NCBI GenBank assembly: GCA_028282585.1
Contig: JANQHR010000126.1
Span: 1 to 64,000, forward strand
Direction: 5' to 3'
DNA: 64,000 nucleotides
DNA from: Bacteroidales bacterium
GTDB lineage: Bacteria > Bacteroidota > Bacteroidia > Bacteroidales > UBA12077
Both the position numbers and the translations under genes were made by a program. This document shows positions 9,878 through 63,959 of this stretch, in pieces. The notes beneath the pieces are model-generated. The model did no database searches. It saw only the letters and a list, made by a program, of their open reading frames with translations, and was not told where the DNA came from. Position 1 is the stretch's first letter. Each line of letters starts with the position of its first letter.

Positions 9878-11039
9878 AATTTTGATATTTTTTTCTTAAA
9901 ATTAATACAAAAGGAATAGCAAAAAACGCTAACATAGATGAAATTTTATAAGTATCAACAAGTCCGATAAGATCACTGATAATGCCAACAACCAAGTTAG
10001 TTAATGATGCAGATACAAAAGAAATAAACATAAATACTCCACTTAAAAAAGCCTGGTGCTCTGAGTCAAAATCCATTACAAGTGCTAATAATACGGGAGT
10101 AGAAGAAATTATAAAAAATCCAAGAGCTATAAGTATAGGAAACATCAATGCTCCTTCTGAATAAGTGAATCCGAGCATTAGAAAAGGAGATATCAATATA
10201 ATAAAGGTTAACATTCTTAATCTGCCAATTTTGTCGGAAAAAGTACCTGCGAGGTAGGCTCCAATGGCTCCTGCAAATTCAAATACCGAAAGGGATGCCC
10301 CTCCTAGCCATAACGAACCACCTTTTTCGTCTAGGTATGTAGGCAGAAAGCTTGTTATGGACGTTTTCATAAAAGCTCTAAAAAACATGATACCTGCAAT
10401 TAAAATAAAAAATGGAAGATGCTCTTTAAACGTTTGCTTTATTCCGGCATAGGATTTTTTATCCTTAATGTCTTTTGAAATGCTTATATTTCTTAACCTG
10501 AAATAAAGAATTAGAGAAGCTAATAAACCAAATGGTATTAACTTAAAGGTTCCTTCAAGTCCCCAAACATCAACTGCAGCAACTATAATTAGAGGACCTA
10601 CGGTCCTTGCAGCTTCTCCTCCTAACATATAAAAGCTCATGCCTTTTCCGATTCTATCACCTGAAATCTTTTTAATTAGAACAGGTGTGGGAACATGAAA
10701 AATAGCACTGCTTAATCCTACAACAAACAAAAGAATTATTAAAATGATATAAAACGGTGAAATACCAAGTAAACTCATGCAGATGGTGGTAATTGCTGGT
10801 GCAAGGATTACCAGATATCTTATTTTTAAGTTATCAGCAATTATTCCAATAAAAGGATTAAGCAGGTTTGGAATTTGTTGAGCTACAAAAAGCAAGCTGA
10901 CAAGAGTATTATTTATACCAAGTTTGGATTTTAACAAAGGAACAATGGGCGCAAGAAATGCAGTGTAAGTATCATGAACAAAATGTGCAATAGAAATAAA
11001 TATAACATTGTTTGTTTGAAACTTTCCGCTTTTTTGCAT
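9870..11039 (-). CDS. MFS transporter (Fsr-like)
   Basis: About 12 hydrophobic segments; AHFVHDTY, AIFHVP, SDKIGR motifs. Confidence 0.88.
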   Translation of the reverse strand: MQKSGKFQTNNVIFISIAHFVHDTYTAFLAPIVPLLKSKLGINNTLVSLLFVAQQIPNLLNPFIGIIADNLKIRYLVILAPAITTICMSLLGISPFYIILIILLFVVGLSSAIFHVPTPVLIKKISGDRIGKGMSFYMLGGEAARTVGPLIIVAAVDVWGLEGTFKLIPFGLLASLILYFRLRNISISKDIKDKKSYAGIKQTFKEHLPFFILIAGIMFFRAFMKTSITSFLPTYLDEKGGSLWLGGASLSVFEFAGAIGAYLAGTFSDKIGRLRMLTFIILISPFLMLGFTYSEGALMFPILIALGFFIISSTPVLLALVMDFDSEHQAFLSGVFMFISFVSASLTNLVVGIISDLIGLVDTYKISSMLAFFAIPFVLILRKKYQNSN

Positions 11040-11074
11040 ATGGTTAGATGTTTTTTATTTTAAAAAGTTTAAAT

Positions 11075-11098
11075 AAAAAACCGGGCTTAACCCGGTTT
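11075..11098 (-). terminator. Rho-independent terminator after punA
   Basis: Minus strand aaaccggg-ttaag-cccggtttttt. Confidence 0.75.
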
Positions 11099-11101
11099 AA
11101 A

Positions 11102-11911
11102 TTATAATTGAGAAATTAATTCTTTCATTATGAGTGTCATCTTCGTTTCAGCTTTAGCTGCAACCTTTTGGACTTCTTCATGTGTTATTTCAACAATTTT
11201 TCCTGGTACTCCCAGATCTGTAATTATTGAAATAGCAAAGCATGGAATCCCCATTTGCCTTGCAACGATAACTTCTGGGGTTGTTGACATTCCCACCGTA
11301 TCACCTCCAATTACTCTGAAATATTCGTATTCTTTTGGAGTTTCAAATGTTGGACCTGTAGTTGCAACATAACACCCAACCTGAGTTTTAATATGGTTCT
11401 TTTTAGCTATTTCCTGTGCTCTTGCGATTAATATTTTGTCATAAGGTTCGCTCATATCCGGGAAACGTGCTCCAAAATTATTATCGTGAACACCAATTAG
11501 CGGATTTGGAATCAAATTTATGTGATCATTTATAATCATCAAATCACCAATTTCGAAATCTGGATTTACTCCTCCACTTGCATTGGAAACCAATAAATTT
11601 TTAATTCCAAGGTATTTCATTACTCGAACAGGAAAGGTAACTTCCATCATGGTATACCCCTCATAATAATGAAAACGCCCTTGCATGGCTACAATATTTT
11701 TTCCTCCTAATTCGCCAAAGATTAGCCTTCCATGGTGCCCTTCAACAGTTGATACCGGGAAATTTGGAATTTCTTCGTAATCTAAGGTATGTTGTATTTT
11801 AATTTCGTTTACTAAACCTCCTAAACCAGTACCTAAAATAATGCCTACTTCCGGTGCAAAATCAAATTTATCCTGGATAAAGGAAACGGTTTGCCTAGTT
11901 TTTTCTAACAT
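11102..11911 (-). CDS. punA: Purine-nucleoside phosphorylase (family 2)
   Basis: ILGTGLG, STVEGHHG, QGRFHYYEG, GPTFET, VGMST. Confidence 0.95.
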   Translation of the reverse strand: MLEKTRQTVSFIQDKFDFAPEVGIILGTGLGGLVNEIKIQHTLDYEEIPNFPVSTVEGHHGRLIFGELGGKNIVAMQGRFHYYEGYTMMEVTFPVRVMKYLGIKNLLVSNASGGVNPDFEIGDLMIINDHINLIPNPLIGVHDNNFGARFPDMSEPYDKILIARAQEIAKKNHIKTQVGCYVATTGPTFETPKEYEYFRVIGGDTVGMSTTPEVIVARQMGIPCFAISIITDLGVPGKIVEITHEEVQKVAAKAETKMTLIMKELISQL

Positions 11912-12968
11912 ATTCGATGATTTGTTGATTAAAATTCTTCTCTTGGTTGTTTAAAAATTCAACTTGTATTGGAATATAGAAAAATGAATTTCCCAGATCG
12001 TTAGCAATATTACTAAATTTTTGCAAACGCATCGCATCTTTTTCGGTAGTAATAATGATTTTGTTATTCGTTTCAACAGAATTATATTTTTCTATAATAG
12101 ACTGAAAATTAGATTTTTTAAACTCGTAATGGTCTGAATATTCTAAAAGTTGTATTTTTTTAGAAATATTTTCTATAACGTATTGTTTCAAAGGCTTTGG
12201 ATTGGCAATTCCTGTTACCAATAAAATTACATAATCTTTTATTTCTTGAGCAGTTATGGCCTTTTTTGTATTAAAAACCGACCTTAAACTTCCATAATTA
12301 AAAGTTGTAAAAAATACCTTTTGGCAGGAAGCTGGTTTTATCTTTTTTAAGATTTTGTTTTGGTGTCCAACGCTTAAATTTTTCGGAGACTTGGTTACCA
12401 GTATAATGTTAGCCCTTCTCTTTTCTAACTTGTTATCGCGAAGGTTTCCCAAAGGAAGCATGAAATCTTTATAGATAGGCCTTGAATAATCAATCAGTAA
12501 AATTGATAACCCGGGGTTAATTTTTCTATGCTGAAATGCATCATCTAATAAAATTGCCCCTGTTTTAGGGTTTAATTCAATGAGTTGATTAATTCCATTA
12601 GACCTATCAGCATCAACTGCAACATTTATTTCTGGGAATTTCTGTTTTACCTGGCGAGGTTCATCCCCAATTTCCTGAACTGTAGATTCTTTTGTTGATA
12701 AGACAAAACCTTCAGTTTTTCTTTTATAACCTCTACTTAGAGTAGCTACTTTAAATTCACTCTTTAATAAATTTATTAGATACTCTATATGAGGGGTTTT
12801 TCCTGTTCCTCCAACCGTAATATTTCCAACCGAAATAAGTGGGACATCAAATTTATTTGATTTGAAAATCCCAAAATCGTATAAACGATTTCTAGTAAAT
12901 ACAACAAAACTATAAATTAAACTTATTGGCAGTAAAATTGGAGAAAGTATGATTCTTAGAAATCGCAT
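11895..12968 (-). CDS. lpxK: Tetraacyldisaccharide 4'-kinase
   Basis: SVGNITVGGTGKTP, LSRGYKR, GDEP, LDDAFQHR, TTEKD; start refined to ATG 12968 (track start 13016 overlaps nadB). Confidence 0.95.
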   Translation of the reverse strand: MRFLRIILSPILLPISLIYSFVVFTRNRLYDFGIFKSNKFDVPLISVGNITVGGTGKTPHIEYLINLLKSEFKVATLSRGYKRKTEGFVLSTKESTVQEIGDEPRQVKQKFPEINVAVDADRSNGINQLIELNPKTGAILLDDAFQHRKINPGLSILLIDYSRPIYKDFMLPLGNLRDNKLEKRRANIILVTKSPKNLSVGHQNKILKKIKPASCQKVFFTTFNYGSLRSVFNTKKAITAQEIKDYVILLVTGIANPKPLKQYVIENISKKIQLLEYSDHYEFKKSNFQSIIEKYNSVETNNKIIITTEKDAMRLQKFSNIANDLGNSFFYIPIQVEFLNNQEKNFNQQIIEYVRKN

Positions 12969-12978
12969 AAGTCCATTA

Positions 12979-14559
12979 TTAAAATTCAGAAATTGTTCCT
13001 TTTTTAGGATAGTCAATTGTATAATGTAAGCCCCTGCTTTCCCTCATATCCTTAGCCATTCTGATTATTAAATACCCTACATTTATTAAGTTTCTTAACT
13101 CACACAGTTTTTGCGAAAGTATCGACTTTTCGTAAAGTTCTTCGGTTTCTTTATAAATTATTTCCAGGCGCCTTAATGCTCTTTCTAATCGTAGGTTTGA
13201 CCTAACAATACCGACATAATTACTCATGATTTGCTGAACTTCCTTATAATTCTGAGTAATCATAACCATTTCTTCAGTATAAGTAGCTCCTTGTGTATCC
13301 CATTCTGGAATATTTTTGTTAATTTCAATATTATTAATTTTTGAAATGGCATGTTTTGCTACTCTATCTGCGTAAACTACTGCTTCTGATAACGAATTAG
13401 AAGCTAATCGATTTGCACCGTGCAGTCCAGTTGAAGAAACTTCACCGGCAGCATAGAGTCGGTTAATTGTACTACATCCATTTTTATCTACTTTAATACC
13501 ACCGCACATATAATGTGCAGCCGGAATAACCGGAATAGGATTTTTTGTGATATCAATGTTTAACGATAGACATTTTTTATAAATATTGGGAAAATGTTCT
13601 TTTAGTTTTTCAGAATCTAGATGTGTTGCATCCAATAAAACATAATCACTACCGGAAATTTTCATTTCATGATCAATTGCACGGGCAACGATATCACGAG
13701 GAGCCAGACTTTCACGTTTATCATACTTATGCATAAACTCTTTGCCATCAAATGTTTTAAGAATAGCACCAAAACCGCGTAATGCTTCTGTAATTAAAAA
13801 GGATGGTTTAGCTCCTGGATTATATAGTGAAGTAGGATGAAATTGAATAAATTCCATATTTTCAATAATTCCTTTTGCCCTATAAACCATTGCTACACCG
13901 TCACCTGTTGCAATTTTTGGATTTGTGGTTGTATCATAAAGATTACCTGTTCCACCTGTTGCAATAAGAGTTACTTTTGATAAGTATTTATCAACCTGGT
14001 CTGTTTTTAAATTTAAAACATAGGCTCCGTAACATTCGGTATCGATATGGCTTCGTTTTACGAGTTTTCCTAAATGGTGCTGAGTAATAATATCAACGGC
14101 AAAATGGTTTTCTTGTAATTCAATATTTTTATGAGTTTTAACCCTATTAACCAAAGAGTTTTGTATTTCCTCACCTGTTTTGTCTTTATGGTGTAATACT
14201 CGATATTCTGAATGTCCACCTTCTCTTCCCAAATCATACTTTCCTTTTTCATTTTGATCAAACTTTACTCCCCATTCAATGAGTTGCTTTATTTGAGCGG
14301 GAGCTTCTCGAACCACCATTTCAACTATTTCTCGGTTACATAAGCCGTCTCCGGCACTCATGGTATCCTCCACGTGTTTTTCATAATTGTCTGGTTCATA
14401 AGTAACTGCAGCAATTCCACCTTGGGCATATTTTGTATTTGATTCTTCCAAAGTAGTTTTACTTACAAGAATTACTTTGCCATACTCTACTACTTTAAGC
14501 GCAAAACTTAGGCCTGCTATTCCAGAGCCAATAACCAAAAAATCGGTTTCTTTGATCAT
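12979..14559 (-). CDS. nadB: L-aspartate oxidase
   Basis: GSGIAGL FAD motif, YAQGGIAA, QFHPT, AAHYMCGG, GLHGANRLASNSL. Confidence 0.97.
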   Translation of the reverse strand: MIKETDFLVIGSGIAGLSFALKVVEYGKVILVSKTTLEESNTKYAQGGIAAVTYEPDNYEKHVEDTMSAGDGLCNREIVEMVVREAPAQIKQLIEWGVKFDQNEKGKYDLGREGGHSEYRVLHHKDKTGEEIQNSLVNRVKTHKNIELQENHFAVDIITQHHLGKLVKRSHIDTECYGAYVLNLKTDQVDKYLSKVTLIATGGTGNLYDTTTNPKIATGDGVAMVYRAKGIIENMEFIQFHPTSLYNPGAKPSFLITEALRGFGAILKTFDGKEFMHKYDKRESLAPRDIVARAIDHEMKISGSDYVLLDATHLDSEKLKEHFPNIYKKCLSLNIDITKNPIPVIPAAHYMCGGIKVDKNGCSTINRLYAAGEVSSTGLHGANRLASNSLSEAVVYADRVAKHAISKINNIEINKNIPEWDTQGATYTEEMVMITQNYKEVQQIMSNYVGIVRSNLRLERALRRLEIIYKETEELYEKSILSQKLCELRNLINVGYLIIRMAKDMRESRGLHYTIDYPKKGTISEF

Positions 14560-45757: not shown

Positions 45758-46378
45758 ATGTTAAAAAAAGAACATATTGCAGCAAAAATTCTTAGAGATT
45801 TAACCTGGCATTTTGCAGGAAAAGACAATGAACTTTTCTTAACTTTTGATGATGGCCCTTCTCCTGAGATTACTCCATGGGTGCTATCTATATTAGCGGA
45901 GTATGACGCAAAGGCAACTTTTTTTTGTATAGGAGGCAAAGTAGATAGAAATCCGAGTTTGTATGAACAAATATTGAAAGAAGGACATTCCGTAGGAAAC
46001 CATGGATATTTGCACATGAATGGATGGAGAACAGGAACCGATAAGTATGTTAGAAATGTTTACAGAGCAGCACATTTTATAAATTCGGATTTATTCAGGC
46101 CTCCTTATGGGAGGATTCGTCCAAAACAAATTACTCAATTAAAAAAAGAGTTTAGAATTGTAATGTGGGATGTACTATCAGGTGATTACGATAAAAAAGT
46201 TAATGAAGTAAGGTGTTTGTACAATGTTCTATCTTATGCCGAATCAGGATCAATCATTGTTTTTCATGACAATATGAAGTCTGAGAAAAACCTAAAGTAT
46301 GTTTTACCAAAAGTGCTTGAGCATTTTACGAAAAAAGATTTTATATTTAATTCAATAGAGTATAAAAAAATAGATTAA
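45758..46378 (+). CDS. Polysaccharide deacetylase (CE4/NodB)
   Basis: LTFDDGP, ATFF, GNHGYLH, FRPPYG, VFHD. Confidence 0.92.
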   Translation: MLKKEHIAAKILRDLTWHFAGKDNELFLTFDDGPSPEITPWVLSILAEYDAKATFFCIGGKVDRNPSLYEQILKEGHSVGNHGYLHMNGWRTGTDKYVRNVYRAAHFINSDLFRPPYGRIRPKQITQLKKEFRIVMWDVLSGDYDKKVNEVRCLYNVLSYAESGSIIVFHDNMKSEKNLKYVLPKVLEHFTKKDFIFNSIEYKKID

Positions 46379-47544
46379 GATCTTTTATTAAAAAGGAACT
46401 TATAAATTAACAAAAAAGGTCTTAAAAAATAATAAATAAAAAATAGAGAGTCTTTTATTTTTACTATTTCCCAATCAGACAGATGTGTTCTAAGTCGAAA
46501 CAATAAATCCAGATAATATTTAGAATCTTTTTTAAGTTTTAGTCTGTAAAAAACAAACTTCAGTTTTCCTAAGATATTTTTTTGACTAATATCTTTGGTG
46601 TTTATAGAGTTTAAAGGCATTCTTATTAAGGCAGGTTTTATATTAAATTCGATAAAATTTATCTCTTTAGTATGATATATCTTATTCGAAAGCATACAAG
46701 CCTGAATAAATGTTTTATCTAGTTTTAATTTCTTAGATAGGTCGAAAGCAGATTTTAATTCATTTTCATTGCTTTTTGTAATTGAAACAGAAAAATCTTT
46801 TAACCAAAATAATCTATACCATTGATGAATACTTCCATGCGCAGCCTGATAAACTAAGTTTTCAGTTTTAGAGATATAAGGTAATTTGTAATTTGAAACC
46901 TTCAGGTTTTGTTTGTTAGAGATGATATTATTTGTTTCTAATCCTAAAAATGATTTAGGGTTAGTCATATTCCAATGCAGTTCAATTTCAATTCCTTGAA
47001 TTGAATGGACAAAATGATAATGATGACTTATGCCATAATTGATTTTTTTTTGTTTTTCTGTTAATTTTATAGAAGGATAGACACAGATAAAATTAAAGTC
47101 TTCAATGATTTTTTTTGCTCTTTCAGTATCGCTGTTTTTTACTAAAACATCAATATCCCTGAAATTTCTAAAACCGATATCATTGTATAAATCGATTGAA
47201 AGCAATGGACCTTTAAAGAAACAGTGCTCTATATTTTGTTTATTAAATTCCTCATGAATCCTTATCGCATGTATCGCAAAATTTAAAGCACGTTTTGAGT
47301 GTTCTAACCGGATTTCTATTAATTTTTCGTAAACAGGGATAGGTATTTTTTCTGCTAAAAAAGTAGAATGTTTTAATATATGTGATATGACTCTGTGTTT
47401 AATGGCAAGCTCAAAAAAGTCATCCCAATCAATTTTGGAAAGATCTAATTGATAGTCACTCTCTAATTTATTTTGTGTAAGGTAAATTATAAGTTTGAGT
47501 TCTTCTGAAAATTTTGAACTCATATAGCTTTTTATTTTATTCAT
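46375..47544 (-). CDS. Nucleotidyltransferase family protein (NTP_transf_5-like), lasso-cluster tailoring enzyme
   Basis: FKG, R..RDIDVLV, IELHW, H..IH.W.RL.WL.D motifs; start overlaps the cyclase stop by 4 nt. Confidence 0.85.
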   Translation of the reverse strand: MNKIKSYMSSKFSEELKLIIYLTQNKLESDYQLDLSKIDWDDFFELAIKHRVISHILKHSTFLAEKIPIPVYEKLIEIRLEHSKRALNFAIHAIRIHEEFNKQNIEHCFFKGPLLSIDLYNDIGFRNFRDIDVLVKNSDTERAKKIIEDFNFICVYPSIKLTEKQKKINYGISHHYHFVHSIQGIEIELHWNMTNPKSFLGLETNNIISNKQNLKVSNYKLPYISKTENLVYQAAHGSIHQWYRLFWLKDFSVSITKSNENELKSAFDLSKKLKLDKTFIQACMLSNKIYHTKEINFIEFNIKPALIRMPLNSINTKDISQKNILGKLKFVFYRLKLKKDSKYYLDLLFRLRTHLSDWEIVKIKDSLFFIYYFLRPFLLIYKFLFNKRS

Positions 47545-49409
47545 TTAAACATGGTTGGATTATTTTCAATAAACAGAATTAATTTTAAATAGTTATAAAA
47601 TGCTCCGGGGTTTATATCCCGATATTTTTTTTCTGATCTTTTACGTAATTTATTAAACCATTGTTCGTATTTATTTACATCAATATATTGGGTAATTAAT
47701 TTATTTGATTTTGCCCTTGTAATAATTTCAAGAATTTGTTCCGAATCATTCATCATTCGCATATGAACAGTAGGAATTGTTGCCCCACTTTTATCATTTC
47801 TCCATTGAATTTTTTCAGGAACTATTCCTTCAAGTGATCTTCGAATCAGGTATCTGCCGATTCCGTTTCTAGCTTTCAACCTGGTTGGAACGGATAAATA
47901 ATATTCGATTAAACGGATATCAAGTAATGGATATCTATATTCGATACCATAGTTTCTTGCTATCAAAGAACAATATTCAAGACGCTGTGATACATGCTGA
48001 TGTGTAATTCTTTCAATATTTCTTTGTTGTAGTCCGGTTATATTTAATTTTTGATAATTAGAATAATATCTTTCCTTTATTTTATGTTTTTCTAAAAAAA
48101 ATGGATTGATTGCCAGGTTTTTAAATTTATAAGTCCACCAGGGTTTTTTAAATTTTAGTTTTAAAAGAATCGGGAAACGGGATTTTAAAAAAACTTTAAG
48201 ATACCTTTTTAGATAATTTAAATAATTGGGATATTGATTTTTGAGATCAACCTTAAGTTCTTTCCATTTTTTATTTGCAGCCAATTCATTTAAATATCCC
48301 GAAGATTTTGAGGTAACTACTTCATCGCCACCAAATCCAGAAAGTAAAACAGTTATATTTTCTTGCTTTGCTTTTTCGTATAACTGATCAGAAAATACAC
48401 CAAAATTTTGCTGAAACAAACTTCTGGTCTCACTTACATTTTGTTTTAATGTTTTGAGTAAAGATTTCTCTGATGTTATAAAATTTCGATTCTCTATTTT
48501 ACTATAATTCGCTAATAGATTTATAAAATCCCGTTCATCTTTAAAGGGATGAATTTTTCCAAATAAATGGTCTGGTAAAACATGAGAAAATGATTTAACT
48601 GGAAGAAAGTTTGAGGCTATAGCCATAACACAAGATGAGTCAATTCCACCGCTTAATTCTGCGCCAACCGATTCCACGTATTTGGTTCTGCAACTAACAG
48701 ATTCAAATAGCAAGTGTTTAAAATCGTTAATTATATCAACATCTTTTTTTTGAACTTCCCTTTTAGTGTTTAGTACCCAATATGATTTTATATCGAGCTT
48801 ATTATTTTTTAATATAAGAATGTGTGCCGGAGGTAATTTCTTAACTTCGGCATAAGTTGTTCGGAATTTTTCCGATTTTACAATAGAAATTGTATCGGCG
48901 ACTTGTTGATTGTCAATTGAAAAAACAAGATCGGTTTGTTCTAAAATGCTAGCGACATCGGTTGAAAAAACAAATGAGTCTTTATTAAAATAATAATGAA
49001 AGGGTTTTATTCCCAAATGATCACGAGCACAGAAAAGCTCTTCGTTTTTTGAATCCCAGATCGCGAAAGCAAAATCACCGATTAGGTAATTTACGCATTT
49101 ATTTCCCCATTTTATATATGCTTCTAAAATGATAAAATCATCACTGAGGCCTTTATTAATTTCTAAATCTCTGATGATTTCATTTCTATTGTAAATAACA
49201 GAATCAGAAACCAGGATAAAACCTGCATAATTTAAAATGGGTTGGTTTTCAAAAGGTGGGAAAAGTACTAGCCCAAAACCAGAGTGATTTTCTAGTGTAA
49301 ATTGAGATTTATTTTTTAAATAAACGGTAAGTTTTTTGATACTTTTCTTAAAAAGCTCTTGGTTTATAGGTTCTGTGTTAACGTTTACTCTTCCAAATAT
49401 AGACCGCAT
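47541..49409 (-). CDS. Lasso peptide cyclase (asparagine synthetase-like C protein)
   Basis: ARDHLGIKP, LSGGIDSS ATP loop, LSGFGGDE, YRYPLLD; no N-terminal Cys2; neighbours are B1/B2 genes. Confidence 0.88.
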   Translation of the reverse strand: MRSIFGRVNVNTEPINQELFKKSIKKLTVYLKNKSQFTLENHSGFGLVLFPPFENQPILNYAGFILVSDSVIYNRNEIIRDLEINKGLSDDFIILEAYIKWGNKCVNYLIGDFAFAIWDSKNEELFCARDHLGIKPFHYYFNKDSFVFSTDVASILEQTDLVFSIDNQQVADTISIVKSEKFRTTYAEVKKLPPAHILILKNNKLDIKSYWVLNTKREVQKKDVDIINDFKHLLFESVSCRTKYVESVGAELSGGIDSSCVMAIASNFLPVKSFSHVLPDHLFGKIHPFKDERDFINLLANYSKIENRNFITSEKSLLKTLKQNVSETRSLFQQNFGVFSDQLYEKAKQENITVLLSGFGGDEVVTSKSSGYLNELAANKKWKELKVDLKNQYPNYLNYLKRYLKVFLKSRFPILLKLKFKKPWWTYKFKNLAINPFFLEKHKIKERYYSNYQKLNITGLQQRNIERITHQHVSQRLEYCSLIARNYGIEYRYPLLDIRLIEYYLSVPTRLKARNGIGRYLIRRSLEGIVPEKIQWRNDKSGATIPTVHMRMMNDSEQILEIITRAKSNKLITQYIDVNKYEQWFNKLRKRSEKKYRDINPGAFYNYLKLILFIENNPTMFK

Positions 49410-49423
49410 ATATTCGTTTTAAG

Positions 49424-49496
49424 CAAAGATAAGCAATTTACGCAAGTGTCTTTAAACAACTGAAAACAGGATTTTATCTGTTTTTCAATAAATTTG
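49424..49496. promoter_or_regulatory. Divergent promoter region of the lasso cluster
   Basis: TATCTTTG on minus (49424-49431), TAAATTTG on plus (49489-49496), imperfect inverted repeat tgaaaacag/ctgtttttca between them. Confidence 0.5.
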
Positions 49497-49513
49497 TGTT
49501 AGTTTGCACTAAA

Positions 49514-50410
49514 ATGAAAAAGAAATTTACATATAAAGCATTTGGCTTAATTTTTAACTCGGATTTTGAAATTCCGGAACTCTTAACCGGATCAGGCGAT
49601 ACTGGCATAAAAATCGAGTTGGGGAAGACTCCAAATCAACTTCAAAAAATTACTAATAAAGGAGTAAAATATGAAGCAACTAAAAATGAATTTTTGCTTC
49701 AGGTTGATCACATAGCAAGATATTATGTTCAAGACGGCGAGAAAATAACCATAGAATTATTAAAAGATAAAGTTGATAAAGAAGTTAGGTTGTTTTTGTT
49801 AGGTTCTGCATTTGGTTCTCTTTTTCTTCAAAGGGGATTGCTGCCGATCCATGGGAGTAGTATTAAGTTCAAAAACTTTGCAACTATATTTACAGGCTTA
49901 AGCGGTGTTGGAAAATCAACTATAGCGGCACATTTTGTTAAACTATCTTATCAGGCTTTGGCAGATGACATTAGTGTTATAAATCACCAATTGCAAGTTG
50001 CGCCTGGTTTTCCAAGTTTGAAAATATGGAATGATGTTTTGGAAAAATTGGAAATTGACAGTGAAAAATTAAATCAAATAAGGCCAAATTTTAAAAAGTT
50101 TCGTGTACCGGTTAATGAGCAATATTATTCCGAACCAGTTCCATTGAAAAATATCGTGATTCTTAGCACAAAAAACTCTCCGGGATTTGAAATCGAGGAG
50201 TTAAACGGAATTAAAAAGTTTACTGCAATCAAGAATAATACCTATCGATATCGATTTGTTCAGGGGCTTGAAAAACAACTGGATCATTTTCAGATTCTTG
50301 ATAAGCTCTTGCCGAAAATAAAGGTTTATAAAGTTTCAAAACCACAGGCCCCATTATTGTTAGATGAATTAGGTGATTTTTTATTACAGAAAATTGAATT
50401 AAATGTCTAA
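49514..50410 (+). CDS. HPr kinase-like lasso peptide kinase (PadeK/ThcoK type)
   Basis: Y.AFGL...S.., LQRG..PIHGS, GLSGVGKST P-loop, ADD, PGFP.LKIW; start refined to ATG 49514. Confidence 0.88.
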   Translation: MKKKFTYKAFGLIFNSDFEIPELLTGSGDTGIKIELGKTPNQLQKITNKGVKYEATKNEFLLQVDHIARYYVQDGEKITIELLKDKVDKEVRLFLLGSAFGSLFLQRGLLPIHGSSIKFKNFATIFTGLSGVGKSTIAAHFVKLSYQALADDISVINHQLQVAPGFPSLKIWNDVLEKLEIDSEKLNQIRPNFKKFRVPVNEQYYSEPVPLKNIVILSTKNSPGFEIEELNGIKKFTAIKNNTYRYRFVQGLEKQLDHFQILDKLLPKIKVYKVSKPQAPLLLDELGDFLLQKIELNV

Positions 50411-51269
50411 GAAAAATATCATATGGTTGGCTAGTTATCCGAAATCGGGAAATACTTGGTTTCGTATTTTTCTTACTAATTTGTTATACGAATCAGATGA
50501 TCCTGCGAATATCAATGATTTAGCTGAAACCTCCATTTCCAGTTCGCGAAAGATATTTGATGAATACACAGGCCTTTCATCTTCCGATTTAACTTTTGAG
50601 GAAATTGATACATTACGTCCTTATGTTTATCGTATACAATCAGAGGAAAGCAATGAGCTATTGTTTAAAAAAGCTCATGATAAGTTTTATAATGTGAATA
50701 AAAATCAACCCTTGTTTCCACCGGAAGTTTCAAAAGGAGTCATTTATTTTATTCGTAATCCATTGGACGTATTAGTTTCTTTTGCATATCACAGTGCTAA
50801 ACCTATTTCAAGAATGCTACCTTCACTAAATAATTCAAAATATGAATTTTGTGGAAGAGATAACAAATTACAAAATCAGTTAAGGCAAATACTAGGAAGC
50901 TGGTCTGGTCACGTTTGTAGTTGGATCAACCAGGATTTAATTCCGATTCATATCATGAGGTATGAAGATATGATCAATGATACTTTTAATACGTTTAAAC
51001 ATGCCGTACAATTTATTGGATTGAAAAAAACGGATAAACAAATAAAAACGGCCTTGGCAAAAAGTAGTTTTTCAGTTTTATCGAAACAGGAAAAAAAGGA
51101 TGGTTTTAGGGAAAAAATGATTCGCACAAAATTTTTTTTTCGTAAAGGTCAAATAGGTGATTGGAAAAACCATTTAAGTGAACGGGAGGTAGAAAAAATT
51201 GTTTTAAACAATAAAGAAATTATGTTGAAATTCAAATACTTGGACAGTAATTACAAACCTATATTTTAA
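50403..51269 (+). CDS. PAPS-dependent sulfotransferase (Sulfotransfer_1)
   Basis: WLASYPKSGNTW 5'-PSB, RNPLDVLVS 3'-PB, RYED, FFRKGQIGDWK. Confidence 0.92.
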   Translation: MSKKNIIWLASYPKSGNTWFRIFLTNLLYESDDPANINDLAETSISSSRKIFDEYTGLSSSDLTFEEIDTLRPYVYRIQSEESNELLFKKAHDKFYNVNKNQPLFPPEVSKGVIYFIRNPLDVLVSFAYHSAKPISRMLPSLNNSKYEFCGRDNKLQNQLRQILGSWSGHVCSWINQDLIPIHIMRYEDMINDTFNTFKHAVQFIGLKKTDKQIKTALAKSSFSVLSKQEKKDGFREKMIRTKFFFRKGQIGDWKNHLSEREVEKIVLNNKEIMLKFKYLDSNYKPIF

Positions 51270-51270
51270 A

Positions 51271-51561
51271 ATGGTTAAAATAAAATTAACGGAAAATACT
51301 TTAATAAAGAGAAAGAATAGTATTCTAGCCAGTGATTTGGATGGGGAAAAGGTTATGATGAGTATCCAAAAAGGTGAGTATTATGGTTTAGGGAAAACGG
51401 GAACTTTTATTTGGGATCACATTGAAAATTACATCTCAATTAGTGATTTAATAACTTTAATTACAGATAAGTATAATGTAAAGAAAGAGCAATGTTTAAA
51501 AGATATTATTCCTTTTATAACGGACCTTATTGAAAAAGAGCTTATTATTGCAACCAATTAG
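51271..51561 (+). CDS. Lasso peptide RiPP recognition element (B1, PqqD family)
   Basis: DLDGEKVMM..QKGEYYGL..TGTFIW, Y.V..EQC..D...F...L. Confidence 0.92.
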   Translation: MVKIKLTENTLIKRKNSILASDLDGEKVMMSIQKGEYYGLGKTGTFIWDHIENYISISDLITLITDKYNVKKEQCLKDIIPFITDLIEKELIIATN

Positions 51562-51592
51562 AGTTTTTTTACGTTTAAACTTGTGAACACGA

Positions 51593-52033
51593 ATGATGTT
51601 CAAACAGATAAAGAAATATTGCAGCTTAGATAAAACTGAACGTAAAATCTTGAATCGAACTTTTTTTTGGTTAATTTATGCTTTTGTACTGGTTCGATTA
51701 ATACCTTTAAAATGGTTTAATTCAATTTTAGGGGAATATAACAACGTGGTTGAAGTAACTTTAAACACAAAACAACTACAGTTAATTTTTGTGGTTAAAA
51801 AAAATATAAGAAGAGTAAAAAAACATTTACCCTGGAAAGTTAAGTGTTTTGAAGAAGCAATAACAGCAAAAAAATTACTGGAAATGGTTAATATAAAATC
51901 AACACTTTACTTAGGAGTCAGAAAAGGGAGTAAACAGACCTTAAAAGCTCACGCCTGGTTGAAAAGTGGAGATAAATTTGTTAGTGGAGAAAAAGGATAT
52001 AAAAGTTTTGTGACGGTTGGATTTTATACTTGA
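51593..52033 (+). CDS. Lasso peptide leader peptidase (B2, transglutaminase-like)
   Basis: PW..KCFEEA catalytic Cys, LYLGV, AHAWL catalytic His. Confidence 0.92.
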   Translation: MMFKQIKKYCSLDKTERKILNRTFFWLIYAFVLVRLIPLKWFNSILGEYNNVVEVTLNTKQLQLIFVVKKNIRRVKKHLPWKVKCFEEAITAKKLLEMVNIKSTLYLGVRKGSKQTLKAHAWLKSGDKFVSGEKGYKSFVTVGFYT

Positions 52034-52059
52034 TTATATGACACTTATGGAAGATTATA

Positions 52060-52088
52060 AAATTTGCATTAAATTTGATTTAAATTTG
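52060..52088 (+). promoter_or_regulatory. Three AAATTTG direct repeats at 11-nt period upstream of the precursor; two are full -7 elements
   Basis: AAATTTG at 52060, 52071 and 52082. Confidence 0.45.
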
Positions 52089-52099
52089 AAAAAAGTGAG

Positions 52100-52258
52100 A
52101 TGATGAAAGAAAAGAATGTAAATAAGGAAACTAGTCAACCATGCAATAAACTTGAATGGGAAGCTCCAAGATTATATTGTTTAGATAAAGGAAAAACAGA
52201 AGGGGGAACCTTTAGCGGATATGCTGAAGGTGTAACATATAATGGTACAGCATCGTAA
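52100..52258 (+). CDS. Lasso peptide precursor, 52 aa: MMKEKNVNKETSQPCNKLEWEAPRLYCLDKGKTE-GGTFSGYAEGVTYNGTAS
   Basis: Translated by hand (below the ORF-track cutoff); WxxPxL leader motif, Thr at -2, Gly1, Glu9, C-terminal Ser; directly after B2. Confidence 0.88.
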   Translation: MMKEKNVNKETSQPCNKLEWEAPRLYCLDKGKTEGGTFSGYAEGVTYNGTAS

Positions 52259-52270
52259 ATTTGTTTTATA

Positions 52271-55200
52271 ATGAGAAAAGTTTTATATTTCTTAGGCATC
52301 ATTCTTATTCCATTAAATTGTTTTAGTCAGGCATGGATTGTGTCTCAGCATCTAAAAAGTGATAATGATTTAAGAATCTTAGATATTAAAAAAGATGCTG
52401 GTAATAATGTTTATGTTACTGGTATTTTTAAAGGCACATATAATGGTAATACTTCTGAAGGTCTTTTTGATATATTTCTGGCAAAGTTTAATAGTGATTT
52501 AAATAAAGAGTGGATTCAAACGGTAGGAAGTTCATCTGTTGAATTCGACCCTAGGATTACTTTAGATGCAGCAAATAATATTTTTTTAACGGGCGCTTTT
52601 AGAGACAGCTGTGTTTTTGATGAAAATATATATTTAAAAAGTGACGGTAACTACGATATTTTTCTCGCAAAGTATTCGAATGTAGGAAATATTATATGGG
52701 CAAAAAATATTGCTAATTATCCAACGCAGCAAAATCCGACTGATATAGATGTTGATGGTAACAACGATCTAATAATAACAGGTCACTTTTCAGACTCTAC
52801 GTATCTTATAAATCAAAAAATAGTTAGTTCAGGAAGGAATAGTTTTTTTGCAAAAATTGATACCAGTGGAACTAAAATTTGGGTTAATTATGTGCCAGGA
52901 AATAATATATCTTCAAGAATTAATAATATTAAAGTGTACCAAGATGAATATTATTTTAATGGGTACTTTAGAGATGAGATGTACTTTGATATTGAAACAA
53001 TTACTAGCAATATACCAGGTCAACAGGATCTTTTTATTTATAAAACAGACATAAATGGCAATGGATTATGGATAAGAAGAACTTATGGTGATAATTTAGA
53101 TGCTACTGGTTCTATTGCTGGAGATAATTATGGTAATGTTTACTTTACAGGGTACTTTCAAAGCTCAACATTAGCGGTAGATTCAACTGATATTAGTTTA
53201 TCTAGTCAGATTTTAACCAATAATAATGATTTTGATATTTTCATATTAAAGTACAATAAAAATGGTAACCTACAGTGGAATAAACAATTTGGACTAAATG
53301 GTCGTGATTACGGTGTTGATGTGAATGTCAATAATGATATTTTATACATGTCAGGTTATTTTAGCGATACTATAGCTTTTGGTGAATATTCACTTGAATC
53401 GACAGGAACAGGGGATAGAGATATGTTTATAACTGTTATGGATCTAAATGCGAAGACTTTTAATTCCATATCTCTGGGAGGGATTGATGGCAATGACCTT
53501 GCTGCTGGCGCTTTGGTTTTAGAAGACGGAGATGCAATCATTAGTGGTTATTTTCAATCATCCAGTATTTCTGTTGGAGATAGCTTATTCATGAATGCTT
53601 CACCTGGTTTTAGGGATGGAATAGTTGCAGAATATAGGCCACCATTATCTGCAGTTTTTTCAAACGTTGAAAATATTGCCTGTAATTCAGATAATGATGG
53701 AGAGCTTACAATAACTGCTGAGTTTGGACAAAAGCCTTATACGTATTCCTGGAGTCATGATGGAGGTTTAACCGATTCTACTGCAATAGGGCTTTCTGCT
53801 GCAACTTATACAGTTACAGTTACAGATGCTGTTGACTCAACGGCGGTGGTAAGTTACGATTTAACTGAACCGGATGAAATTACGTTTAATCCATTGGTTA
53901 CCCAGGTAAGTCAATGCAGTTACTCAAAAGAAGGAGTTATTGATTTAAATGCAGCAGGAGGAAATGGAGGATATACATATCAATGGCAGGCGAGCGAAGG
54001 AGGAGATGGTATTGTGTTAAGCGCAGAAGACCAATCAGGTTTAGCTATTGGTAGATACGATGTAACAATAACTGACACAGAATTATGTACAAATGATACT
54101 ATAACTTACATTACCGGACCGGCACCAATTACGTTTGGAGGTTCTGTTGTAACTGATTCTTCGGGGATAGGTCCCGGAGCTATTGATTTATCATATACTG
54201 GTGGATCTGGAAGTCCTGCTTCTTTTACATTTGATTGGATTGGCCCATCAGGTCCTCCAGCTACTCATTCTGAAGATACTTCCAACTTGAGTCCTGGAAA
54301 TTATAGTGTTACTGTTACAGATGTTCATCTTTGTGAGTTTGATACAACCTTTAATGTTGCAAATTTGGATACATTTTATATATTTATTTCAGACCAAAAA
54401 GATGCTTGTTTAGGAACTATTAATGGTAATGCAACGGTTAGCTTTTCTTCACCTAAAGGACATACGTTAATTAACTATTTATGGGATGTAAATGCAGGAA
54501 GCCAAACAACGGCAAAAGCAACTAATTTAGCTCCCGGGAGATATTATAAAGTTACTGTTACTGATACTGAGAATACGCCGAATACAACTTTAGTTGATAG
54601 TGTATATATAGATGAGTTAATATATAATTTGGCAGGTTCATTGTCAGGTACAACAACACTGGATTGTTACGGTGATACGGATGGTTATATTGATTTAACC
54701 ATAACCATAGCTGGAGAGTTGCCCTATACTTATAATTGGAGTACAGGTTCAAACTTACAGGATATTACCGATCTTGGAATAGGAAATTATAGTGTTACAG
54801 TTACTGATGATAATGAGTGTACTTTTTCAATTACAAACTATGCTATAAACCAGCCGGAACTTTTAACAGCTTCTGCTGAAATTATAAACGAACCTTCTTG
54901 TAACGGGGATTTTGATGGTGAAGTAACTGTTGATAGAAACGGAGGGACAGCACCTTACACGTACCAATGGGATGACCCCGGATTTCAAGATACCCGCAAT
55001 GCAGATGGATTAGATGCTGGCTATTACACTGTAACTGTTACGGATGTAAATAATTGTATGACATTATCTGGAATTAATTTAACCGAACCAGATGTAGTTT
55101 CAATTAGTAAAGTAATAAGTGATGAGATATGTAATTCAGCAGGAGAAGGAGCAGTTACATTAACAACAACGGGAGGTACGGATCCTTTTGGCTATTCTTG

Positions 55201-56584
55201 GACTACAACTGATGGTTCAGGATTAATATCTTCTAATAAAAATCAGACCGGGCTTACAGCAGGGAAATATTATTTTACAGCAACCGATAATAATGGTTGT
55301 GCTTTTATGGATAGTGCTGAGATAACGGAACCTGAATTACTTCAAATTACCAATGAATCCAAAACAGATGTGAATACCTGTAATGGTGATAACACTGGTA
55401 CCATAACAATCGCAGCATCAGGAGGTACAGGTATTTTAACTTATACATTAAATCCTGGAAATATTCAAACAAATAATACAGGGGCATTTACAAGTCTTGG
55501 TGCTGGTAATTATACAGTAAATGTTGAAGATGAAAATGCATGTGCAGTAGCTTCAAGTTCTCTGAGTATAGCAGAACCGGCTTTATTAATAATTACTAGG
55601 AATGATGTAAATGATGCAACTTGTTATGGAATTAATAATGGGAATATTGACATTAATGTGTCCGGAGGAACAATTTCATCAGGATATACTTTTAATTGGA
55701 CAACTTCGGATGGTTCTGGACTAGTTGCAGGTTCAGAAGATCAGCCAAGTTTAGGAAATGGGACCTATGATTTAACTGTAACTGATGATAATTTATGTTC
55801 GGATAATACAAGCTTTGTGTTAACAGAACCTGAAGCTATTATAGTTAATAAAACAGTGTATGAGCCATCATGCAATGATGATAATGATGGAACTGTAATA
55901 GTTACACATTCTGGAGGAACTTTACCTTTTTCGTATTTTTGGACAACAACAGATGGAAGTGGCTTAGATCCGGTTTATCGAAACCAAGGTGGATTAAGCC
56001 CGGGAACGTATTATTTAGAAATTACAGATGCTTTAGATTGTATAATTAACGAAGCTGTTACAATTACAGCGCCATCTATAATTACTATAGATTCTCAGAG
56101 CTCTACTGATGCAACCGATTTTAATACTGCTGACGGAACAATTTCAGTAACTGCATCCGGAGGTACAAGTACATTGACTTATGTATTAAGACCAGACGAT
56201 ATTTCGAACCAAACCGGTACTTTCAATTCATTATTACCTGGTGAATATGTAATAGAAGTTGATGATATTTATTTTTGTGGACCAATAACAACAGATACTA
56301 TTACTATTGGAGCAATTAATTCAGTTAATTTAATTTTTGCAGGAGATTTTATTAAAGTGTTTCCTAATCCAACATCAAGTAAAGTATTCGTGGAAATAGA
56401 TATGAATGCTACCTTTAAATTAGAACTCGCTAGTATGTCTGGACAAATCTTATATCAGGATGAAATAATCACAAATGGATTTATGAAAGAAGAGATTGAT
56501 CTTTCCTCATTTACAAAAGGGATTTATTTGCTGAGAATATATAATAATGAATATTACTTAACAGATAAGCTTATATTGCAGTGA
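52271..56584 (+). CDS. T9SS type-A cargo: N-terminal beta-propeller (SBBP-like) repeats plus SprB repeats
   Basis: Signal peptide; GNxYxTGxF / DIFLAKY repeats; C...DG.I....GG..PY.Y.W...L.AG.Y.VTVTD repeats; VFPNP...KGIYLL CTD. Confidence 0.9.
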   Translation: MRKVLYFLGIILIPLNCFSQAWIVSQHLKSDNDLRILDIKKDAGNNVYVTGIFKGTYNGNTSEGLFDIFLAKFNSDLNKEWIQTVGSSSVEFDPRITLDAANNIFLTGAFRDSCVFDENIYLKSDGNYDIFLAKYSNVGNIIWAKNIANYPTQQNPTDIDVDGNNDLIITGHFSDSTYLINQKIVSSGRNSFFAKIDTSGTKIWVNYVPGNNISSRINNIKVYQDEYYFNGYFRDEMYFDIETITSNIPGQQDLFIYKTDINGNGLWIRRTYGDNLDATGSIAGDNYGNVYFTGYFQSSTLAVDSTDISLSSQILTNNNDFDIFILKYNKNGNLQWNKQFGLNGRDYGVDVNVNNDILYMSGYFSDTIAFGEYSLESTGTGDRDMFITVMDLNAKTFNSISLGGIDGNDLAAGALVLEDGDAIISGYFQSSSISVGDSLFMNASPGFRDGIVAEYRPPLSAVFSNVENIACNSDNDGELTITAEFGQKPYTYSWSHDGGLTDSTAIGLSAATYTVTVTDAVDSTAVVSYDLTEPDEITFNPLVTQVSQCSYSKEGVIDLNAAGGNGGYTYQWQASEGGDGIVLSAEDQSGLAIGRYDVTITDTELCTNDTITYITGPAPITFGGSVVTDSSGIGPGAIDLSYTGGSGSPASFTFDWIGPSGPPATHSEDTSNLSPGNYSVTVTDVHLCEFDTTFNVANLDTFYIFISDQKDACLGTINGNATVSFSSPKGHTLINYLWDVNAGSQTTAKATNLAPGRYYKVTVTDTENTPNTTLVDSVYIDELIYNLAGSLSGTTTLDCYGDTDGYIDLTITIAGELPYTYNWSTGSNLQDITDLGIGNYSVTVTDDNECTFSITNYAINQPELLTASAEIINEPSCNGDFDGEVTVDRNGGTAPYTYQWDDPGFQDTRNADGLDAGYYTVTVTDVNNCMTLSGINLTEPDVVSISKVISDEICNSAGEGAVTLTTTGGTDPFGYSWTTTDGSGLISSNKNQTGLTAGKYYFTATDNNGCAFMDSAEITEPELLQITNESKTDVNTCNGDNTGTITIAASGGTGILTYTLNPGNIQTNNTGAFTSLGAGNYTVNVEDENACAVASSSLSIAEPALLIITRNDVNDATCYGINNGNIDINVSGGTISSGYTFNWTTSDGSGLVAGSEDQPSLGNGTYDLTVTDDNLCSDNTSFVLTEPEAIIVNKTVYEPSCNDDNDGTVIVTHSGGTLPFSYFWTTTDGSGLDPVYRNQGGLSPGTYYLEITDALDCIINEAVTITAPSIITIDSQSSTDATDFNTADGTISVTASGGTSTLTYVLRPDDISNQTGTFNSLLPGEYVIEVDDIYFCGPITTDTITIGAINSVNLIFAGDFIKVFPNPTSSKVFVEIDMNATFKLELASMSGQILYQDEIITNGFMKEEIDLSSFTKGIYLLRIYNNEYYLTDKLILQ

Positions 56585-63578: not shown

Positions 63579-63959
63579 TTATAAGGTATAACTTACTTGC
63601 TCAAAAGGAACATCAACGATATCTGCATATTCTTCACCTGCTTCTTCCATATCTTCATCATCTTCCGGGAAATACCACTTAATTAGAACACTCTTTCCAT
63701 TTTCATGCATTTCTTCTAGCTTCATTAAAATATCAAGAATTAATTTTGAAGATGCAGTGTTGAAATATACTAATTTAAAGGAAAATACTGTTTGGTCATT
63801 TGCCTCTTCCTGATAATCTTCCAGCCAATTTAAGATAGGCTCATAAAAAGTTGTTACGTCTTCAGGAAGCGATCTGCCTGAAATTTCAAAAATCCCATTT
63901 TCTTTGTCTAGAATAATGGTAGGAGTATCGTCAGTACCTTTAATCTTTATTACTTCCAT
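63579..63959 (-). CDS. SiaC family (DUF1987) regulatory phosphoprotein
   Basis: T.DTP.I, ISGRSLPED...FY.P...W, YFNTASSK, W....DEDM.E.GEE. Confidence 0.88.
   Translation of the reverse strand: MEVIKIKGTDDTPTIILDKENGIFEISGRSLPEDVTTFYEPILNWLEDYQEEANDQTVFSFKLVYFNTASSKLILDILMKLEEMHENGKSVLIKWYFPEDDEDMEEAGEEYADIVDVPFEQVSYTL

Follow-up and report, generated by a model that had tools for sequence, protein, structure and literature searches.

A predicted paeninodin-like lasso peptide cluster with kinase, nucleotidyltransferase, and sulfotransferase genes in uncultured Bacteroidales

RESULTS

A lasso peptide gene set lies in two divergent transcription units

The subject of this study is a 64,000-nt stretch of DNA (the window; positions 1 to 64,000 of contig JANQHR010000126.1) from a Bacteroidales metagenome-assembled genome (MAG) of 4.9 Mb in 173 contigs, and within it a predicted gene cluster for a lasso peptide. 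Open reading frame (ORF) calling, Pfam, NCBIfam, and Rfam searches, and promoter and terminator scans were run on the window. Seven genes lie side by side at the locus: C, B1, B2, and A, which encode homologs of the minimal lasso machinery (macrolactam synthetase, recognition element, leader peptidase, and precursor), together with K, N, and ST, which encode a kinase homolog, a nucleotidyltransferase homolog, and a sulfotransferase homolog. From C, N follows on the minus strand; divergent from it, K, ST, B1, B2, and A follow one another on the plus strand (Table 1). The ORF list, Pfam, and NCBIfam agree with the positions and families given to all seven genes, and with the two divergent units described, in an initial annotation made from the sequence alone. 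The hidden Markov models that it had proposed as a check (PF00733, PF05402, PF13471, PF14907, and PF00685) all match the expected genes.

The gene set is far beyond chance, and it recurs in many genomes with a precursor whose leader is conserved and whose core varies. The evidence set out below makes it very probable that the locus encodes a working lasso peptide pathway of paeninodin-like type and has been passed on vertically within an uncultured, low-G+C lineage of Bacteroidales. Its product would probably bear a phosphate and a sugar, and perhaps a sulfate. The initial annotation had likewise proposed an intact lasso pathway of C, B1, B2, and A, of the kinase-containing paeninodin/pseudomycoidin type, in a Bacteroidota host, and both proposals are borne out: the close relatives are Bacteroidales MAGs, and the gene next to A encodes SprB repeats and a type IX secretion system (T9SS) sorting domain. 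Its word "complete" holds for the minimal machinery and fails for export, as there is no exporter gene in the cluster. "Heavily modified" was an overstatement for modifications read from gene content only.

Table 1. Features of the lasso peptide locus and of other genes in the window. RRE, recognition element of RiPPs, ribosomally made peptides with posttranslational modifications; PAPS, 3'-phosphoadenosine-5'-phosphosulfate; ABC, ATP-binding cassette; MFS, major facilitator superfamily.
Feature	Position	Strand	Evidence
N: NTP_transf_5 family, PsmN-like, 389 aa	46375..47544	-	PF14907, 156.8 bits (cutoff, 31.2)
C: lasso macrolactam synthetase, Asn-synthetase homolog without glutaminase Cys, 622 aa	47541..49409	-	PF00733, 150.3 bits
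Divergent C/K spacer, 104 nt	49410..49513		Gene spacing; both promoters presumed to lie inside
K: HprK-like lasso peptide kinase, 298 aa from ATG	49514..50410	+	Weak PF07475 and HprK-related matches
ST: PAPS-type sulfotransferase, 288 aa	50403..51269	+	PF00685, 98.3 bits (cutoff, 22)
B1: PqqD-like RRE, 96 aa	51271..51561	+	PF05402, 57.8 bits; NF033536, 96.3 bits (cutoff, 80)
B2: transglutaminase-like Cys-His leader peptidase, 146 aa	51593..52033	+	PF13471, 61.6 bits; NF033537, 72.3 bits (cutoff, 33)
TTTGCA...TTTG element, candidate dedicated promoter for A	52063..52078	+	Conserved block upstream of precursor start
A: precursor, 52 aa, ending in Ser	52100..52258	+	No Pfam match
SprB-repeat protein with T9SS C-terminal sorting domain, 1437 aa, neighbor	52271..56584	+	PF13573, PF18962
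MFS-PNP-LpxK-NadB block	9870..14559		
TerB domain, ABC ATPase, and ABC-2 membrane domain fusion, 1031 aa	60446..63541	-	
SiaC-family regulatory phosphoprotein gene	63579..63959	-	

The genes are closely packed. N and C overlap by 4 nt and K and ST by 8 nt, and the gaps are 1 nt between ST and B1, 31 nt between B1 and B2, and 66 nt between B2 and A. On the N side the cluster is flanked by a 370-aa gene of unknown function, a TMEM260-like glycosyltransferase gene, and a polysaccharide deacetylase gene. On the other side, the SprB-like gene begins 12 nt past the stop codon of A, and the two are presumably cotranscribed; the three terminator-like sites in the window (2.7 in shuffled sequences) include none between them. 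The TTTGCA...TTTG element, which lies about 25 to 45 nt 5' of the precursor start and is conserved when 18 genus-level upstream regions are aligned, may act as a promoter of its own and raise transcription of the precursor gene; we take it to resemble the TAnnTTTG -7 box of Bacteroidota. A scan for sigma-70-type promoters, which does not cover those of Bacteroidota, found 32 sites against a mean of 40 expected from shuffles, and Rfam gave no family at gathering score anywhere in the window. A search of sequencing runs found no RNA run with the sequence and a single DNA run, which is possibly the source of the assembly and has no bearing on expression.

The precursor belongs to a family with a fixed leader and a variable core

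The ORF that follows B2 encodes the 52-aa precursor A, MMKEKNVNKETSQPCNKLEWEAPRLYCLDKGKTEGGTFSGYAEGVTYNGTAS. Its leader contains W20-x-x-P23-x-L25 and T33, its core starts at G35 (position 52202) or G36 (position 52205), and the ring acceptor, E43 (positions 52226 to 52228), is followed by a tail of only 9 residues. Within that tail, Y47 is likely the plug and S52 likely the phospho-acceptor. In paeninodin, ThcoA, SyanA, and pseudomycoidin, the residue phosphorylated is the C-terminal Ser (PMC9266682). With its leader motif, a Thr near the cut, a small residue 1, and an acceptor at position 9 or 8, the protein has the sequence features of a lasso precursor. The leader also fits a paeninodin-like cluster, as WxxP is nearly invariant in such leaders and HprK kinases and nucleoside triphosphate (NTP) transferases are the typical tailoring enzymes there (PMC13381572).

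Of 11 regions 3' of B2, taken from the window and its relatives, 10 contain an ORF of 48 to 53 aa with the same leader and a different core; the remaining region is cut off by the end of its contig. Across 80 further loci, 29 of the 37 B2 genes identified are followed by a small ORF with the motif [WYF]xxPx[LFIV], and every one of these 29 ORFs has a Thr exactly 8 residues after the motif and a Gly 3 residues after the Thr. Because the search demanded the leader motif only, the positions of Thr and Gly were not built into the result. When the motif was sought in every locus, 42 distinct ORFs emerged, of which one (at locus L067) was spurious. The motif begins with W in 40 of the remaining 41 precursors. 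Among 24 aligned precursors, P23, T33, and G36 do not vary, and conservation of W20 is at least 90%. Serine is the last residue in all 18 genus-level precursors and in 14 of the other 23, and an aromatic residue stands 2 to 6 residues after the acceptor in 35 of the 41. The conservation of the leader beside a variable core indicates continuing selection. A hypervariable core on a fixed leader points further to diversifying selection, as expected for a peptide of competition or signaling.

B1 and B2 resemble the leader-processing proteins of lasso clusters

Catalytic or cofactor residues are conserved in all six enzymes of the cluster. Among PDB entries, B1 matches best the lasso PqqD-family chaperone 9x90_B (E, 1.2e-17), with TbiB1 and TfuB1 next, and Y37 of B1 is invariant in 53 homologs. 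C85 and H120 of B2 are invariant in 37 of 37 homologs, and the cluster B2 is the sole B2 in its genome. Docking of B1 with the precursor gave a score of 0.50, and the best of three controls gave 0.07, with contact agreement between runs of at least 91% and a partner pLDDT (predicted local distance difference test) of at least 53. In calibration, 58 of 80 solved complexes and 2 of 110 mismatched pairs attained the mark; those that did so at scores of 0.60 or lower were only 7 of the 80 solved complexes, along with both of the passing mismatches. Similar complexes have already been solved (TbiB1 and 9x90), so that the pass may reflect memory; the docking lends weak support to binding of the precursor by B1 and indicates a likeness at most.

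The cyclase homolog C is separate from asparagine synthetase B

C shares with asparagine synthetase B (AsnB) the two-domain fold family, with PF13537 (degenerate glutamine amidotransferase, or GATase, domains in C) and PF00733, and the PP-loop motif SGGxDS, here within ELSGGIDSS. S253-G-G-x-D257-S258 of this loop is conserved in 77 homologs, as are further residues. C differs from AsnB in three respects. First, it starts with MRSIFG and therefore lacks Cys2, whereas all eight AsnB-like paralogs that we fetched, one from its own genome and seven from relatives, start with MC(G/S)I and so carry the glutaminase Cys. Second, it scores below the AsnB cutoffs (238 versus 267.1 bits for TIGR01536 and 110.4 versus 499 bits for NF006949), and its best NCBIfam match is the lasso cyclase model NF033535, at 385.7 bits; the three paralogs scanned pass AsnB/Asn-synthase cutoffs, with 919.9, 675, and 478.1 bits. 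Third, it falls in a separate clade. In a quick maximum-likelihood tree, for which 77 cyclases were thinned to 39 by taking every second one and the groups were preset by context and Cys2, one branch with an SH-aLRT (Shimodaira-Hasegawa-like approximate likelihood ratio test) support of 100 parts the 39 cluster-context cyclases from the eight Cys2-bearing paralogs. The initial annotation had allowed that C might prove to group with true AsnB enzymes; by the tree, Cys2, and the curated cutoffs alike, C is a lasso-type Asn-synthetase homolog that stands apart from them. The best 120 of 2410 cyclase relatives are called "hypothetical," "asparagine synthase-related," or "asparagine synthase (glutamine-hydrolysing)," and none of the names among those 120 mentions lasso.

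K, N, and ST are predicted tailoring enzymes

Residues H113, G128, G131, G133, K134, D151, and D152 of K are conserved in 58 homologs, and in the window protein Ser135 directly follows Lys134. The spacing of this motif is that of H148-G163-G166-G168-K169-S170-D186-D187 in BsfK (PMC10368454). Over its full length, K is 29% identical to the kinase of a paeninodin-family cluster in Priestia (E, 8e-43). An in-frame GTG at position 49496 is an alternative start; orthologs align from the ATG at 49514. By sequence, no solved PDB relative was found for K, N, or B2.

In N, K111, G112, D130, D132, H190, H236, and D250 are 100% conserved in 58 homologs. The D130/D132 pair corresponds in kind to D134/D136 of PsmN, whose D134A/D136A double mutant is inactive, with hexose addition abolished (PMC6993621).

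ST has conserved residues P13-K-S-G-N-T-W19, R118, S126, H130, R247, and G249 (45 homologs), in loops that we take to be the PAPS cofactor-binding loops. Its nearest solved relatives by sequence are cytosolic sulfotransferases (SULTs), and the glycopeptide sulfotransferases Teg12, Teg14, and StaL. When the cores of loci with ST were compared with those without it, including six loci with five of the enzyme families and no ST, no core residue tracked the presence of ST. Tyr is missing from several genus-level cores despite the presence of ST, and obligatory Tyr sulfation is thus not supported. In the literature searched, we found no experimental work on any lasso-associated sulfotransferase and, in the parts of it that were available, no characterized sulfated lasso peptide.

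The locus is syntenic across Bacteroidales and evolves faster than its flanks

Relatives were sought in 40 genomes, including 24 others of the same genus (genomes and loci are given below by our G and L numbers). An ortholog of C, 48 to 69% identical, is present in 18 of these 24; G001 and G005 have only paralog-level matches (27 to 30% identity), and G009, G012, G013, and G019 have no C match. Among 17 neighborhoods that were fetched, 10 repeat the arrangement of the window, with the 370-aa gene, the TMEM260-like gene, and the polysaccharide deacetylase gene beside N and C, these divergent from K, ST, B1, and B2, and then the precursor, the SprB-like gene, and purD wherever the contig continues. 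The other seven comprise one truncated locus, two from other genera, and four with C and N only.

A wider scan took one genome per GTDB species and covered the best 80 of 371 relatives, many of whose loci are cut by contig ends. Within these 80, the close relatives are all uncultured "Bacteroidales bacterium" MAGs, and the more distant ones include Desulfobacteraceae, Pelobacter, Erythrobacter, Chloroflexota, and Pseudoalteromonas. With profiles built on the genus orthologs, all six enzyme families were found in 28 of the 80 loci and five families without ST in 6; K is present in 57, ST in 45, and N in 59. K divergent from C and N is the layout in 38. The initial annotation had called the layout atypical, which is so only in comparison with Bacillota clusters; within this lineage it is the usual one, given these 38 loci and the 28 with six families.

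Flanking genes persist at considerable distance. In 57 loci the cyclase scores under 700 bits on the profile built from the genus; of these loci, 21 retain the TMEM260-like and deacetylase genes on the N side, and 21 retain the SprB-like giant gene on the precursor side. The cyclases at loci that keep flanks are mostly about 30 to 38% identical to C of the window, and the TMEM260-like protein is about 56% identical where C is about 33% identical; by this measure, the cluster evolves faster than its flanks. The locus looks old and vertically inherited. The idea of the initial annotation that the cluster had been inserted between housekeeping genes does not survive this comparison: block and flanks are syntenic in 10 of 17 loci and in distant Bacteroidales, and the G+C content of the cluster, 0.26 to 0.33, is no different from that of its flanks. 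Of 301 genomes sampled from the order, 32 have a B1 of this type above its cutoff; the figure for a phylum-wide sample is 7 of 401.

In one subclade, the C-N pair has moved as a unit (loci L020, L021, L022, and L024, in genomes G022, G007, G014, and G021). The relocated pair adjoins an MFS-PNP-LpxK-NadB-like block, with DUF6272 and SiaC genes coming next. In three of the four genomes, the old site still holds K, ST, B1, B2, A, and the SprB-like gene; G021 (78% complete), the remaining one, gave no B2 match. Since C and N were relocated while K, ST, B1, B2, and A were kept in place, the two divergent units can be parted, and the pathway can operate from separate sites. The MFS gene beside the relocated pair was considered as an exporter and rejected, as the same block occurs in the window without C and N. 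In the window, a SiaC-family gene adjoins the unusual TerB/ABC-2 fusion gene (Table 1); SiaC and DUF6272 genes are also those found after the relocated pair in L020.

Several loci show rearrangement or foreign elements. The lasso locus of G009 (L038), a genome without a C match, is rearranged, with two large secreted-protein genes inserted, and its precursor-like ORF has no Asp or Glu in the core. Between purD and a divergent B2 at this locus, three tandem units of about 385 bp (L038:7680-8830) each carry the same pair of small ORFs. In G001, divergent B1 and B2 genes adjoin purD, and G012, G013, and G019 (88%, 94%, and 70% complete) gave no B2 match. Between ST and B1, L012 (10429-10977) and L018 (11940-12458) have an IS200/Y1-transposase-like (RAYT-like) ORF with short repeats, which matches PF01797 weakly (E, 3e-4), and L013 (3059-3424) has a DUF559 endonuclease-like ORF.

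Other observations concern labels and gene dosage. Contig JBKHIH010000054.1 (L052, the same as G022:C100), which carries C and N genes at 50% identity, is labeled "Thiohalospira sp.," a gammaproteobacterium; this NCBI organism label looks wrong, as the genome is placed in the genus of the window. In three loci from MAGs labeled Desulfobacterota (L071, L081, and L112), C is preceded upstream by K together with two or three sulfotransferase-like ORFs; the precursors end in Ser, and L071 and L112 have a second K downstream.

DISCUSSION

Proposed pathway

From gene content, homology, conserved residues, the precursor family, and synteny, we infer the following steps, their order, and their product. 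B1 would bind the 52-aa precursor via its WxxPxL leader, and K would phosphorylate the C-terminal Ser52 on the linear precursor. B1 and B2, the latter using Cys85 and His120, would then cut off the leader next to Thr33. C would adenylate the Glu43 side chain and close an isopeptide ring onto the new N-terminal Gly. With Thr33 at position -2, the core would consist of residues 35 to 52 and the ring, Gly35 to Glu43, would have nine members; with a cut one residue later, the ring would run from Gly36 to Glu43 and have eight. The tail would thread the ring with Tyr47 as the likely plug, after which N, a PsmN-like enzyme, would put a hexose or another group on the phospho-Ser. ST would add a sulfate at a site that is not predictable.

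Several observations weigh against this pathway. K scores below every curated HprK cutoff (for PF07475, 23.4 versus 33.3 bits). A has no match to the curated paeninodin-family model NF033524, even at an E value of 1 or less, whereas the Priestia precursor scores 57.7 bits on it against a cutoff of 27. C falls short of the curated cutoff of NF033535, which is 525 bits; however, the cyclase on the Priestia plasmid, named a lasso cyclase in RefSeq, reaches 388.8 bits, so that the score of C is typical for the family and argues only weakly against membership. Nine of the 23 precursors outside the genus end in a residue other than Ser despite the presence of K, so that the wider family does not share a single kinase target. 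Since other lasso kinases act on Ser3 (PMC10368454), the site of K may differ among relatives. No ABC exporter lies between positions 42692 and 57966; the nearest ABC gene is the unrelated TerB/ABC-2-type gene about 8 kb off, with which the Priestia exporter D aligns only in the ATPase segment. The genome, finally, is a MAG whose 173 contigs have an estimated contamination of 3.9%.

The junction between leader and core also sits uneasily with known lasso peptides, whose leaders are reported to have Thr at the penultimate position and whose rings are reported to have 7 to 9 residues (PMC10368454). Placing Thr at -2 leaves 7 of the 41 precursors without Asp or Glu at core positions 7 to 9 (the acceptor is at 10 in six and at 11 in one) and gives 10 precursors a core that begins with Asn, Thr, Ser, or Asp. 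If the cut is moved by one residue toward the C terminus, the core begins with the invariant Gly and the acceptor falls at positions 7 to 9 in 40 of the 41. This second arrangement was our first reading; it is no longer preferred because the invariant Gly aligns with core residue 2 of pseudomycoidin (Ala1, Gly2, and Asp9; PMC6993621) and of the Priestia precursor, and the junction was weighed instead. On balance we lean slightly toward Thr at -2, a choice that the sequence cannot decide. Either outcome is unusual for part of the family: with Thr at -2, six precursors would need a 10-residue ring, and if all rings have 7 to 9 residues, the conserved Thr would stand at -3. In the available parts of the literature searched, neither a 10-residue ring nor a Thr -3 variant was found described. 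A register with W at -17, as in YxxPxL leaders (PMC10368454), was rejected, as core residue 1 would then be variable. The acceptor in the precursor of L071 fits neither junction model.

Alternative explanations

Rather than a threaded lasso, the product could be a tailored but unthreaded peptide, either a branched-cyclic macrolactam or a mainly linear phosphorylated peptide for which K and N are the defining chemistry. Pseudomycoidin without K and N was reported to be unthreaded, with bulky C-terminal modifications proposed as the lock (PMC6993621), and the family of linear polyphosphorylated peptides (LPP) is also defined by K, N, and an RRE and often lies beside lasso clusters (PMC13381572). 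The shortness of the tail after Glu43 fits such a product too. LPP clusters, however, use a signal-peptidase-like enzyme (PMC13381572), whereas C and B2 are present, intact, and conserved here, and the aromatic residue after the acceptor in most of the precursors is plug-like. Threading cannot be judged from sequence, but given these features we think an unthreaded product unlikely.

It is less probable still, and in our view very improbable, that the functional lasso cluster we propose is instead a silent or decaying relic that makes no product in this organism. Decay does occur in the lineage, as in the rearranged locus of G009, with its acceptor-less precursor-like ORF and its lack of a C match, in the three genomes without a B2 match, and in the three relatives with selfish elements inside the operon. 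In the window, by contrast, no ORF is interrupted, none of the conserved catalytic residues is missing, and genes overlap or adjoin one another in the manner of a translationally coupled operon, and the retention of the leader while the core varies indicates that selection continues.

That C is an ordinary AsnB-like amidotransferase, for example of envelope or polysaccharide chemistry, standing by accident beside a RiPP operon, is scarcely credible: the public names of its relatives, the placement of C and N by MFS, PNP, LpxK, and NadB-like genes in four genomes of the genus, and the glycosyltransferase and deacetylase genes in the flanks would fit that role, but C lacks the Cys2 that the paralog in its own genome has, falls below the AsnB cutoffs with a lasso cyclase model as best match and in a separate clade, and left K, ST, B1, B2, and A behind in three of the four genomes where it moved with N, and the MFS-PNP-LpxK-NadB block stands in the window without C and N, which makes that adjacency secondary.

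Significance

If the locus is the lasso peptide cluster that we propose, a bolder claim can be made for it, which we hold only tentatively and regard as rather doubtful: the lineage may make the first sulfated lasso peptide, on a phospho- or phosphoglycosyl-Ser lasso, and the family may break one of two lasso rules, that of Thr at -2 or that of rings of 7 to 9 residues. As a weaker addition, the pairing with a SprB-type T9SS protein, kept across distant Bacteroidales, suggests that the peptide might serve a cell-surface or physiological role rather than act as a diffusible antibiotic. Clusters of this family are common among uncultured Bacteroidales. As a compact system, the cluster lends itself to asking what a lasso-associated sulfotransferase does, a question that has stood in the reviews consulted since such genes were first noted, and it provides a natural precursor series for probing the Thr(-2) and 7-to-9-residue-ring rules. 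Its interest thus lies in the uncharacterized sulfotransferase and in the anomaly of junction and ring size, and not in the mere presence of a lasso cluster.

Comparison with known systems

K, N, and ST genes in lasso clusters have been described by genome mining since 2014 to 2016 (PMC4289311 and PMC8498205). HPr-kinase and sulfotransferase genes were noted in 2014 in clusters of anaerobic Gram-positive strains (PMC4289311), and a review describes lasso clusters of Firmicutes that carry K and an NTP-transferase gene and begin with a sulfotransferase (PMC8498205). These Firmicutes clusters, known from genome mining only, have ST beside K, B1, B2, and C, as in the window; their ST stands at the cluster start, whereas that of the window is wedged between K and B1, with ends that overlap or abut those of its neighbors. 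As for Bacteroidota, a putative lasso cluster has been published from the symbiont Amoebophilus (PMC8831229), and solved lasso structures come from three phyla only, Bacteroidota being represented by predicted sequences alone in the LassoPred set (PMC12214591). No characterized lasso peptide from Bacteroidota was found in the literature searched, although supplementary lists (Tietz 2017, Kretsch 2023, and LassoPred) may hold these clusters.

The phosphorylated lasso clusters of proteobacteria resemble the window in the kinase motif and in dependence on B1, as in SyanK of Sphingobium and BsfK of Bradymonas (PMC10368454). BsfK phosphorylates a core Ser3 and not a C-terminal Ser, and the Bsf precursor is reported to have Ile at -2, indicating that leader rules can shift in kinase-type clusters. 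The proteobacterial clusters differ further in having YxxPxL at -17 to -12 and neither ST nor N (PMC10368454).

The pseudomycoidin cluster in Bacillus pseudomycoides likewise has an HprK-like kinase (PsmK) and a PF14907-type N protein with an Asp-x-Asp pair, PsmN-dependent addition of a hexose has been shown, and the Ala1-Asp9 ring of pseudomycoidin, with Gly2, agrees with the window precursor if Thr is at -2 (Gly1, Gly2, and Glu9) (PMC6993621). The differences lie in the position of N, as psmN stands between B2 and D and N of the window is coupled to C on the opposite strand, in the presence of ST, and in the absence of an exporter gene.

The paeninodin family, known from Paenibacillus dendritiformis and Priestia, provides a direct comparison. 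A tblastn search of B1 against plasmids found a cluster on the Priestia aryabhattai plasmid NZ_CP064100.1, annotated as a lasso cyclase, a "paeninodin family lasso peptide," an "aldolase," a PqqD chaperone, B2, and an ABC transporter. The "aldolase" (L127:5069-6004) looks misannotated; weak HprK-related matches and its full-length identity of 29% to K identify it as an HprK-like lasso kinase. The proteins of this cluster are 45% (B1), 31% (B2), 29% (K), and 27% (C) identical to those of the window. Its 44-aa precursor has the same register from W to Thr, with WxxPxL and a Thr 8 residues later, and the same C-terminal Ser, and the His...GxxGxGKS...DD motif of the paeninodin-family kinase is also present in K (PMC10368454). 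The Priestia genes run C-A-K-B1-B2-D on one strand, whereas in the window N and C are divergent from K, ST, B1, B2, and A. Relative to these Bacillota clusters, the window adds ST and N, has no ABC exporter, and has a precursor without an NF033524 match. By its sequence features the cluster thus belongs to the paeninodin-like type already known from Bacillus relatives, here in another phylum and at a chromosomal locus that appears to be vertically inherited.

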